Assembly (NCBI RefSeq): GCF_050303215.1
Contig: NZ_JBNLBH010000019.1
Location: 64,001 to 128,000, forward strand
Direction: 5' to 3'
From: Haliangium sp.
GTDB lineage: Bacteria; Myxococcota_A; Polyangia; Haliangiales; Haliangiaceae
Length of the DNA stretch: 64,000 nucleotides
In this document: positions 20,770 to 62,147 of the stretch, one piece after another
How positions within the stretch are numbered: the first letter of the stretch is position 1
How the letters are laid out: the number at the start of each line of letters is the position of its first letter
Made by a program: the position numbers and the translations under genes
Notes under the pieces: model-generated
What the model was told of the DNA's origin: nothing
The model's database searches: none
Seen by the model: the letters and a program-made list of their open reading frames with translations, nothing else

Positions 20770-21600
20770 TCAGAGCTTCTTCTCGCCCTTCTTGATCACC
20801 CACTCGTTGTAGTAGTCGGCGACCGAGGTGCCCTGAGAGACACGCTCGTTGGCCTTCTTGAGCTCTTCGTCAACGACCCGCTTGAAGGCCTCGTAGGGCT
20901 GGGCCCCACGCAGGAAGCGGCCGTTGATGAAGAAGCCGGGCGTGCCGGTGACCCCGAAGGCCTGCAGCTCGCTGTGGTCCTTCTGGATGATCTTGGCGCA
21001 CTCGCCTTCCATGTCGGCCTTGAGGCGATCGATGTTCAAGCCAATCTCGCCGGCGATCTTCTCCATGTTCCCCTGGCTCAGATCTCGGCCGGCGTTGAAA
21101 CCCTTCTCCCAGATCAGCTTCTCCATCTCCGCGAACTTGCCCTGCTTGTCGGCTGCGCACGCAGCCTTGGCCGGGATGGTGGCGGCACCGGGGTGCACGA
21201 TGTAGTGGCGATAGACGATCTTGATGTCGCTCTTGTACTCTTCCAGCAGTTTCTCGAGGGTCGGACCGACCCTCTGGCAAAACGGTCAGGCAAACTCGAA
21301 GGCCTCGACGATCGTGACCTTGGCCTGCTCGGCGCCCTTGTACGGGCCGGTCGCCGGCACGGCGTAGACCTTTGAGGGATCGGGTCCGCGTGGTCTCCTC
21401 GGGCGCTGCGCGGCTGCGCCGCGGTTGCCCCGTTGCAGCAGTTGTTCGATGTTTTGCAGGCGCTTGTCGATCTCGTCGAGCTTCTCGCTGGTCTGCGAGG
21501 TGCCCGCTGGCTGGCAGGCCATGAGCCCGCCGACCGTGAGCGCCAGCACTCCGGTCATGGTCAAAAAGCCGATGGGTTTCATACGCATCCAGTCACCCAC
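20770..21600 (-). CDS. DsbA-family thiol:disulfide oxidoreductase predicted to be a selenoprotein (in-frame UGA = Sec in a U-P-F-C redox motif); signal peptide/lipoprotein
   Basis: Track ORFs 21286..21600 and 20770..21198 are in the same frame. They are separated only by TGA at 21286-21288, and the sequence reads ...VTIVEAFEFA-[TGA]-PFCQRVGPTLEKLLEEYKSD.... The stop falls where the first Cys of the DsbA CxxC motif belongs. A perfect 9-bp inverted repeat (GAGGGUCGG/CCGACCCUC, apical GGUC-like loop) begins 11 nt 3' of the UGA, which is the bacterial SECIS spacing. The N-terminus MKPIGFLTMTGVLALTVGGLMAC is a signal/lipobox-like sequence. Confidence 0.7.
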
Positions 21601-55462: not shown

Positions 55463-55858
55463 AGAGCTCCCCTCCGGTGCATGAACAGACGTCGACGAAG
55501 CGATACGGGCACACAAACCATCAAGAGCGTAGCTCGGATGTTCGACCCTGTCATCTTCGCGACGATGGTCACGCGAGCGGGCGCACAGACCGGTGTCGGG
55601 CTCGGTCCCCCGTCGCCTACATATCCGGACGTCATCGCAGAACGCGCGCAGTTCTCCCGGGTCACCCGGCACAACGTCGCTCGCTTGTCAGGGTAGCGGC
55701 GCTCGGACTACTATCTGGCGCAGGCCACGTACCGTCGTTGGAGCGCGTCCAACCGGGCTCGGCCCAGCCTTGGAGGTCGCCCGCCTATCGCGCTATGTAG
55801 GCGGGGATCTTATCGACTGCTATACCTAGCATTGGAAAACGAGAGTCAGGAGCTCATC

Positions 55859-57319
<1,461 letters not shown>

Positions 57320-57686: not shown

Positions 57687-60812
<3,126 letters not shown>

Positions 60813-60883
60813 GCCTCCTCTGGACGGCGTGATACAGTCCAGCTCGCGGCCGAGCGGCGCTGCTCCCGCCTGGAGCCGACGCT

Positions 60884-61633
60884 ATGGGCTCGCTCGACGA
60901 ATTCGACTGGAAGACCCGCACCTTCCTGCGCCTATATCGCTGGCGTCGGCTCGATCCCGTGCCCTGGACCAGCCTCGCTCGCCCCCTGTCCCAGTGCCGG
61001 GTGGCGCTGGTGAGCTCAGCCGGGCTGGTCGGCCCCGGCCAGCCCGATTTCGATCCCGGCGTCCGCGGCGGTGATTTTTCCTACCGCGTGCTCGATCGAG
61101 ACGTCGATCTCACCCTCCTGCGCGACAGCCACCGCTCGGCCACCTACGACCACGCCCACGTCGAGGCCGACCCCAACGTGGCCTTCCCCCTCGACCGCCT
61201 GCGCGAGCTCGCTGCGCGCGGCACCATCGCCGAGGTGGCCCCGCGTCACCTGTCGTTCATGGGCAGCATCACGGCGCCCGGGCGCCTCATTCGGCGCACC
61301 GCCCCGGCCGCGGCCGAGCTCCTGGCCGCCGACCAAGTCGACGTCGCCCTGCTGATCCCGATATGACCCACCTGCCATCAGACCGTGGGTCTGATCCAAG
61401 CCGAACTCGAGCGCCGGGGCGTGGTCACCGCCTCGGTCTCGATGCTGCGCTCGGTCACCGAGCGCGTCCGCCCCCCCCGCGCCCTGGTGGTGCCCTTTCC
61501 CCACGGCCAGCCGCTCGGCCGGGCCGGGGCCGTCGCCACCCAGCACCGCGTGCTCGCCGCCCTGCTGGCCCTGGTCGAGCACGCCGCCCCGCCTCCGCCC
61601 GTGATCGTCGAATGGCGCGCCGATGTCATATGA
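60884..61633 (+). CDS. GrdB/PrdB-family (glycine/betaine/sarcosine/D-proline reductase selenoprotein B-like) C-terminal-domain protein; predicted selenoprotein with in-frame UGA (Sec) in a U-P-T-C motif
   Basis: Track ORFs 60884..61366 and 61385..61633 share a frame and are interrupted only by TGA at 61364-61366. The joined sequence reads ...[10 protein letters not shown]...DVALLIPI-[U][19 protein letters not shown]...[11 protein letters not shown]. From memory, this aligns with the GrdB segment ...AVILTSTUGTCTRCGATMVKEIERAGLPVVHI...VAIPHPLGNP, placing the stop at the Sec position. An 8-bp stem AUCAGACC-GUG-GGUCUGAU begins 10 nt 3' of the UGA and is SECIS-like. Confidence 0.7.
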
Positions 61634-61661: not shown

Positions 61662-62147
61662 ATGAATCCGGACACCCCCTATCACATCGTCTTCGCCATC
61701 GACTTCTCCGAGATGACCGATGCCGTGATCCAGGCCGCCATCGCGCAGGCCCAGAGACACCGTCGCCCCACCCTCCACGCCGTGTGCGCCCTCGACATCC
61801 AGCCCAACCCGCTGGCCCCGCCCGAGACCGCCGACGAGGAGCTCGACGCCATCGAGACCGCCATGCGCGCCCGCGTGGCCGGTGCCTTCGCGGCCGCCGG
61901 CCACGACATCGACGCTCCCGGCGACTGGTCGATCCACCTCCACGCCCGCTCCGGCCGACCGGCCGAGACCATCGCCGCGCTGGCCGAGGAGCTGCGCGCC
62001 GACGTGATCATCCTCGGCCGCCACGGCCGCACCGGGGGCCGCCCCTTCATCCTCGGCTCGGTCCCGATTCGGCTGATGCAGCTCGCCCGCTGCACCGTGA
62101 TGGTGGTGCAGCCCAAGAACTACCCACCCGTGGTCACGGGTGACTGA
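61662..62147 (+). CDS. Universal stress protein (UspA-family)
   Basis: [11 protein letters not shown]...[13 protein letters not shown]....[19 protein letters not shown] is a Usp alpha/beta domain with the ATP-binding G-x2-G-x9-G(S/T) region. The start was taken at the internal ATG (MNPDTPY). Confidence 0.7.

Follow-up and report, generated by a model that had tools for sequence, protein, structure and literature searches.

An in-frame TGA raises two questions about a gene of Haliangium sp.: whether this codon ends translation or is read as selenocysteine (Sec), and, if it is read through, what kind of enzyme the gene encodes. The gene lies at 60884..61633 on the + strand of a 64,000-nucleotide stretch of DNA (contig NZ_JBNLBH010000019.1, positions 64,001 to 128,000), which we call the window, and its product resembles PrdB of D-proline reductase and GrdB of glycine reductase. 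An original prediction had proposed a selenoprotein of the GrdB/PrdB family, with Sec at the TGA and a hairpin resembling a selenocysteine insertion sequence (SECIS) just downstream. Our analysis indicates that the gene is very probably a genuine, Sec-decoded, stand-alone PrdB-like selenoprotein gene.

Reading of the open reading frames (ORFs) shows that 60884..61633 is a single frame of 249 codons, interrupted solely by the TGA at 61364-61366. The two ORFs called there, 60884..61366 (160 aa plus the TGA) and 61385..61633, share this frame, as had been predicted, and the first continues in frame to the stop codon TGA at 61631-61633. The complete product thus comprises 160 aa, Sec161 and a further 88 aa, and its 249 residues agree with the joined sequence described earlier. 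Residues around the TGA read I-U-P-T-C, which places Sec at residue 161 and a second cysteine at residue 164; the latter, encoded by the TGC at 61373..61375 (+), is the proposed resolving Cys of a U-P-x-C motif. GC content at third codon positions (GC3) is 0.85 upstream of the TGA and 0.90 downstream of it. A putative Shine-Dalgarno-like GGAG, read from the sequence, lies 8 nt before the ATG (60872..60875, +).

The identity of the interrupting codon was examined across the family. A protein database search returned 2,542 significant relatives of the window protein, an exhaustive profile search yielded 3,004 clusters (50% identity) at E <= 1e-3, and at least 569 species encode a relative among species-representative genomes. 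Our sample of gene copies consisted of 80 fetched loci, the gene of Haliangium ochraceum (represented by two copies, L001 and L002) and the window, together 82 distinct copies. TGA occupies the Sec column in 81 of these 82, the H. ochraceum orthologue included, and the exception, a locus from Verrucomicrobiales (L053), carries TGC. The sample spans Acidobacteriota, Binatia, Myxococcota, Verrucomicrobiota, Gemmatimonadota, Planctomycetota, Desulfobacterales, Nitrospirota and others, and the reconstructed relatives are 55-66% identical to the window protein. Past the Sec residue, the columns P.C.Q, E.ER.G, PPRAL.VPF and G.PL are conserved at 90% or more across the 82 sequences.

Homologues with cysteine at the same position give the same answer at the protein level. 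Nineteen database matches are full-length (247-286 aa), and in their alignment (A1) the Sec column holds Cys in 17, Trp in one and Gly in one; the Cys forms are 52-58% identical to the window protein. Likewise, a bona fide PrdB has Cys at this column; conservation of Sec or Cys there is what the original prediction requires. Cys164 is invariant in alignments A1 and A3 and in every Sec-form locus. The occurrence of TGA in 81 of 82 copies, the Cys homologues and the conservation beyond the TGA together exclude, in our view, a true stop, a pseudogene or a sequencing error. The two odd proteins, P0015 with Trp and P0019 with Gly, carry residues that a single base change could produce from TGA (as TGG or GGA), and they may be inactive forms or assembly errors.

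We asked whether the mRNA past the UGA carries a SECIS element. The hairpin AUCAGACC-GUG-GGUCUGAU (61377-61395, +; in DNA letters a stem of ATCAGACC/GGTCTGAT with the loop GTG) forms a perfect 8-bp stem after a 10-nt spacer and folds alone at -9.7 kcal/mol, as had been proposed. Covariation was scored on this hairpin in 73 Sec-form sequences aligned in register over the TGA and the following 45 nt (alignment A2). In this set 90.4% of the stem cells are paired, and compensatory, two-sided changes occur at six of the eight stem pairs, a result matched by none of 500 shuffles. Pair 19-27, for example, is AU in 36 sequences, GC in 33, GU in three and unpaired in one, and pair 15-31 is CG in 50, UA in 16 and UG in three. 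Sliding the 3' partners by 1-3 columns lowers pairing to 18-44%. The innermost pair, 21-25, is not conserved, which leaves a consensus of a 7-bp stem with a 3-5-nt loop, and G22 and U23 of the loop are invariant in all 73 sequences. Some of the stem changes couple a non-synonymous first position (ACC/GCC, Thr/Ala) with a synonymous third position two codons on (GGU/GGC), a pattern for which constraint on the protein would hardly account.

In the fdhF SECIS of E. coli the stem begins about 11 nt past the UGA and the G/U of the loop lies some 23-24 nt from it. The hairpin found here is similarly placed within the coding sequence, about 10-11 nt past the UGA, with a small apical G-U loop about 22-24 nt away; it differs from the fdhF type in its stem sequence and in lacking a bulged U in the window copy. 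The base that follows the UGA is always C, the first base of the Pro codon that comes next, and UGA-C is a weak termination context. A scan of the window with Rfam at gathering thresholds reported two tRNAs only, with no SECIS family and no tRNA-Sec. Furthermore, selA, selB, selC and selD were not found within the 64-kb window by Rfam or by Pfam scans of its major ORFs (~2.6-42 kb and 46.5-64 kb). That the genome encodes this machinery is indirectly supported by another gene of the window with a TGA and a SECIS-type hairpin, and by the TGA of the H. ochraceum orthologue.

Public annotation breaks the gene at the TGA. The top database match is a 100%-identical record of 160 aa from 'Haliangium sp.' (P0001), named 'glycine/sarcosine/betaine reductase selenoprotein B family protein', which stops at the Sec codon. 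The next ~100 matches are also ~160 aa long and represent gene calls ended at the same codon, P0040 of H. ochraceum among them. The separately called downstream ORF, of 82 aa in the ORF list of the window and of 88 aa in the H. ochraceum annotation, is the C-terminus of the selenoprotein. The public record of this gene therefore ends at 160 aa, like those of ~100 close relatives, where its true product is a selenoprotein of 249 aa. The Pfam GRDB model (PF07355) itself stops at the Sec column, its seeds presumably having been cut at the TGA. It never spans the C-terminal third of these proteins, and may help to perpetuate the short annotation.

Next to the identity of the codon stands that of the enzyme. 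The window protein matches Pfam GRDB at 46.8 bits (cut-off 22, E = 3.4e-12) over residues 18-157, corresponding to profile positions 206-344 of 347; the model goes no further than the Sec column, which limits the match to these residues. The selenoprotein-B-type models TIGR01917, TIGR01918, NF040794 and NF040795 were applied at their curated cut-offs along with the PrdB model. The best NCBIfam match is PrdB (TIGR04483; E = 4e-32), which covers profile positions 19-219 of 238 and scores 111.5 bits, far under the equivalog cut-off of 300. The selenoprotein-B subfamily model likewise stays below its cut-off (45.2 bits against 65.45), as do the models for GrdB (41.1 against 602), GrdF and GrdH (56.2 against 800 and 56.9 against 775). 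Searches of PDB sequences, started from the protein alone and from a profile, gave nothing meaningful. By its sequence the protein is a member of the GRDB/PrdB superfamily that has the full-length PrdB architecture and is collinear with the whole of PrdB. The suggestion that its ~250 aa correspond to the C-terminal domain alone is thus not upheld. Since all of the specific NCBIfam models score far under their cut-offs, it is no orthologue of PrdB, of GrdB or of another characterised member; the predicted placement in their family stands at the level of the superfamily and of the U-x-x-C motif, and of the profiles named for checking it, Pfam GRDB passes its cut-off and TIGR01917 and TIGR01918 do not.

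A positive control shows what a true PrdB looks like. P0267, a protein of 241 aa from one of the 3,004 clusters, reaches 453 bits with the PrdB model, and its gene is located immediately after prdA (PF09338) and a gene for a 149-aa protein. It shares 27% identity with the window protein, with C-G-T-C aligned to U161-P-T-C164. No tblastn match to its PrdA or to the 149-aa protein was found in the window and 84 related loci (~0.96 Mb). The window protein thus resembles PrdB of the Clostridium sticklandii and C. difficile type in its length (~240-250 aa), its end-to-end collinearity, its membership of PF07355, the Sec or Cys at the homologous column of U/C-x-x-C and, presumably, a chemistry with a Sec nucleophile and a resolving Cys. 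It differs in the low identity, in the absence of prdA and prdH next to the gene or in the 84 related loci, and in the motifs WRR, HRS and RPPRALxVPF of its clade, which are missing from the true PrdB P0267. Similarly, it matches the C-terminal half of GrdB, GrdF and GrdH, including the Sec region (profile ~209-420 of 431-435), but it is without their N-terminal ~200 residues, being 249 aa long against a two-domain protein of ~430 aa, and has no grdA, grdC, grdD or grdE nearby. A further difference from PrdB lies in the hosts, which include Haliangium, an aerobic genus not known for Stickland metabolism.

Some relatives with the same domain are built differently. Related subfamilies of 380-415 aa (P0128, P0129, P0143, P0144 and P0148) have a C-terminal extension of ~150 residues that lacks a Pfam match, and P0196 (495 aa) has an N-terminal HTH_3 DNA-binding domain. 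P0219 weakly matches PF24696, the 'UGSC family', which also ranks among the abundant marine selenoprotein families.

A view of the likely fold comes from the Cys homologue P0002 (58-59% identity to the window protein), modelled with AlphaFold2. The model (predicted local distance difference test, pLDDT, 93.3; predicted template modelling score, pTM, 0.92) displays a three-layer alpha/beta domain. Its U/C residue sits in the loop that joins strand 154-158 to helix 162-177, and the first turn of this helix contains Cys164. The protein is accordingly modelled as a compact, Rossmann-like alpha/beta domain in which UxxC takes the usual geometry of a redox-active CxxC. Far from the motif lie many nearly or fully invariant charged or polar residues: R21, R22, D57, G62-G63-D64, H83-R84-S85, D89, D96, N98, R105 and R199.

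In PrdB and GrdB a partner protein activates the substrate on its pyruvoyl group for attack by the selenol; a neighbouring Cys then resolves the selenoether to a selenenylsulfide, and a dithiol reduces the latter. Conserved from this scheme are U-x-x-C, its placement at a helix N-terminus and the invariant polar residues, and the pyruvoyl partner is absent. In our reading the UGA at 61364-61366 is decoded as Sec under the direction of a SelB-type SECIS hairpin within the coding sequence. By analogy with PrdB and GrdB, Sec161 would then serve as nucleophile or reductant towards the bound substrate. With Cys164 as the resolving residue, the adduct would give way to a Se-S bond (selenenylsulfide), which a thiol system would reduce again; this could be thioredoxin or, where relatives carry one next to the gene, an FAD disulfide reductase. 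Our belief in this catalytic cycle of attack, resolution and re-reduction is evenly balanced. The data themselves show the structure of the gene, its Sec codon and SECIS element, the placement in the superfamily, the lack of prdA and the strong conservation, whereas the cycle, its reductant and the kind of substrate are inferred. Because the protein works without a pyruvoyl partner (PrdA or GrdE), its substrate would not be D-proline or glycine. Judged by analogy, it is most likely a Sec-dependent reductase that stands alone and forms a Se-S bond with Cys164 in each cycle.

The neighbourhood of the gene was searched for a partner. ORFs within 5 kb were clustered in 74 loci, and no conserved neighbour emerged across the family, the biggest non-self cluster being present in eight loci. 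Likewise, no grdA, grdC, grdE or thioredoxin gene was found among the Pfam-scanned neighbours in the window. Together with the lack of PrdA at the 84 related loci, these results agree with the earlier claims that such genes are not nearby and that the gene stands alone, outside a Stickland operon.

One association recurs in a minority of relatives. In ~10 of 83 loci, from Myxococcota and Gemmatimonadota, arsenosugar-type genes occur within 6 kb in varying arrangements (L047, L027, L055, L072, L040, L032, L063, L030, L011 and L056). The set, of which these loci have parts, consists of an ArsS radical SAM (seleno)protein, MTAP, TIGR04282/TIGR04283 glycosyltransferases and an FAD-containing oxidoreductase. 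At L027 and L047 (Kofleriaceae) and at L055 and L072 (Anaeromyxobacteraceae) the PrdB-like gene ends a same-strand run with the arsenosugar-type genes directly upstream; L040 and L063 are arranged differently. The run at L047 (40-8133) encodes an ArsS-type radical SAM (seleno)protein, MTAP, a permease, an FAD oxidoreductase and a fusion of the TIGR04282 and TIGR04283 'arsenosugar biosynthesis' glycosyltransferases. With 722 bits (cut-off 620), this FAD-containing oxidoreductase falls into the MerA/Lpd class. A further gene, combining domains like MerT/CopZ and like the 'DF family (seleno)protein', follows at L047. The adjacency may reflect a functional link or an island of selenoprotein genes. 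Neither tblastn nor the Pfam scans detected arsenosugar-type genes in the window, and none are present at the H. ochraceum locus. The window ORF at 55697-57319 was considered as a counterpart of the FAD reductase of these relatives and was rejected as unrelated. At six other loci, from Desulfobacterales and other deltaproteobacterial metagenome-assembled genomes (L019, L021, L028, L060, L067 and L075), a same-strand gene of ~410 aa lies ~0.4-1.6 kb downstream; by eye its product looks like a fusion of an alpha/beta-hydrolase and an OsmC-like domain.

These data bear on four other explanations of the locus. If the TGA were a genuine stop codon, or else a lesion in a pseudogene or a mistake in sequencing, the product would be a protein of 160 aa, with or without a separate one of 82 aa, which is how public annotation presents it. 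The hairpin taken alone weighs on the same side. The 66-nt fold reaches only z = -1.09 against shuffles, and a comparable hairpin follows 46 of the 1386 TGA triplets in this GC-rich window, so that by itself it is within chance and the case rests on comparative evidence. The SECIS element has two caveats of its own: the stem sits within conserved coding sequence, and the Cys-form DNA, a weak control of three sequences only, keeps three, six and six of the seven stem pairs. Against a stop, lesion or error, an identical TGA recurs in independent copies from many phyla, the 88 residues past it are under strong purifying selection with GC3 remaining at 0.90, the Cys homologues are one polypeptide, and the covariation of the stem is strong. 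We regard termination or error at the TGA as scarcely credible, and a gene whose TGA encodes Sec is the reading we retain. That the protein is instead a genuine PrdB of D-proline reductase, or serves as selenoprotein B in a reductase for glycine, betaine or sarcosine, with a pyruvoyl partner encoded elsewhere in the genome, is suggested by the literature, which names the family 'proline reductase PrdB', and by PrdB being its best NCBIfam match, collinear and alike in length and Sec position. This too is very improbable, given the deficits against the PrdB, subfamily and GrdB cut-offs, the 27% identity to a true PrdB, the failure to find prdA or the 149-aa gene in the window or the 84 related loci, and the lack of a conserved neighbour.

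A stand-alone reductase with a substrate of its own must further be weighed against a generic thiol/selenol-disulfide oxidoreductase, which would act on protein or low-molecular-weight disulfides in a stress response and would not cleave a C-X bond. U-x-x-C at a helix N-terminus is the classic geometry of redox carriers, a gene for a universal stress protein (Usp) begins 28 nt downstream, most genomes offer no dedicated partner, and the literature places the family among thiol-dependent redox selenoproteins (PMC1088965). However, the charged and polar residues that are invariant across phyla far from the motif suggest a specific substrate pocket, and the protein is homologous to substrate-cleaving enzymes and not to the thioredoxin fold. 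We consider the generic role unlikely, though it is the strongest of the alternatives. Less probable still is a role in the organic chemistry of metalloids (arsenic or selenium), such as the reduction of pentavalent methylarsenicals with recycling by the adjacent MerA/Lpd-like FAD disulfide reductase. The idea arises from arsenosugar-type clusters that recur beside the gene in Myxococcota and Gemmatimonadota, at four loci directly upstream on the same strand. Yet these loci are a minority that includes neither the window nor H. ochraceum; there is no known biochemical link, a literature search on a connection between arsenosugars and selenoprotein B having found nothing; and the juxtaposition of selenoprotein genes could be lineage-specific. 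The preferred reading therefore remains that of a stand-alone, Sec-dependent reductase.

The window harbors a second selenoprotein gene, as had also been predicted. It encodes a DsbA-like protein (20770-21588, - strand) with a TGA at 21286-21288 in the motif A-U-P-F-C. Its hairpin, GAGGGUCG-GUC-CGACCCUC, has an 8-bp stem 11 nt past the UGA, a geometry near-identical to that of the PrdB-like gene, and this is consistent with a single SelB reading both. The DsbA-like protein has a lipoprotein-like or signal-like N-terminus.

Around the PrdB-like gene, the large upstream neighbour (57687-60812, +) has a product in which a protein kinase is joined to a 'novel STAND NTPase 1' (nSTAND1) domain. This product also has a second, possibly degenerate kinase-like region at its N-terminus. 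The downstream Usp gene (61662..62147, +; Pfam Usp, 1.7e-24) is separated from the PrdB-like stop codon by no terminator-like site on the + strand, and the two genes are possibly co-transcribed; their pairing is not conserved in relatives. Beyond the Usp gene, on the opposite strand, lie a class-V aminotransferase gene and then a Sir2 gene. The rest of the window is typical of a myxobacterial chromosome, with genes for type IV pili, a secretin, exopolysaccharide, kinases, TatC and pyruvate:ferredoxin oxidoreductase.

How does this gene relate to selenoproteins already described? In the Sargasso Sea survey 'proline reductase PrdB' came third in abundance among known selenoprotein families, represented by 42 Sec genes and one Cys homologue (PMC1088965), and in the Global Ocean Sampling (GOS) data the PrdB family ranked seventh, with 235 sequences of the Sec form and 110 of the Cys form (PMC2398784). 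PrdB and a DsbA-like protein are both listed as selenoproteins of Anaeromyxobacter dehalogenans (PMC1794560), and two Anaeromyxobacter loci in our sample, L072 and L079, carry the PrdB-like gene with TGA. The family of these surveys (pfam07355, UxxC; Zhang & Gladyshev 2005, 2006, 2008) agrees with ours in its Pfam domain, in UxxC, in the excess of Sec over Cys forms, in its occurrence in oxic environmental samples and in deltaproteobacteria, and in its presence in Anaeromyxobacter alongside a DsbA-like selenoprotein. Nothing substantive differs between the two, the identity of the clades being inferred from the published descriptions. The gene thus belongs to a widespread selenoprotein family that has been catalogued since 2005-2008, and it is no new kind of system. 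The survey papers treat the family as proline reductase, and recent reviews keep it listed as D-proline reductase, a label that the evidence presented here does not support. Our literature searches found no selenoproteome of Haliangium, no paper on PrdB homologues without PrdA, and nothing on 'PrdB-like' or 'GrdB-like' families.

What our analysis adds is that the public record of the gene is too short, that the clade fails every test of a true PrdB but the Sec motif, and that prdA is absent from the 84 related loci. It adds, moreover, that the family uses Sec almost exclusively and that a minority of its loci adjoin arsenosugar-type genes. The family is among the most abundant of environmental bacterial selenoproteins, and yet it is labelled 'proline reductase'. 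The absence of PrdA, the sub-threshold scores and the ~60% identity kept across phyla argue against this label and in favour of an orphan enzyme. As a speculation that we hold to be rather improbable, the environmental 'PrdB' selenoproteins, with the window gene among them, would be no subunits of proline reductase and would form a separate, almost obligately Sec-dependent, stand-alone family with a substrate of its own, which may be a metalloid, such as a methylated arsenical, reduced by way of a MerA/Lpd-like FAD reductase. The near-exclusive use of Sec by these stand-alone 'PrdB' selenoproteins implies a chemistry for which Cys is poorly suited.

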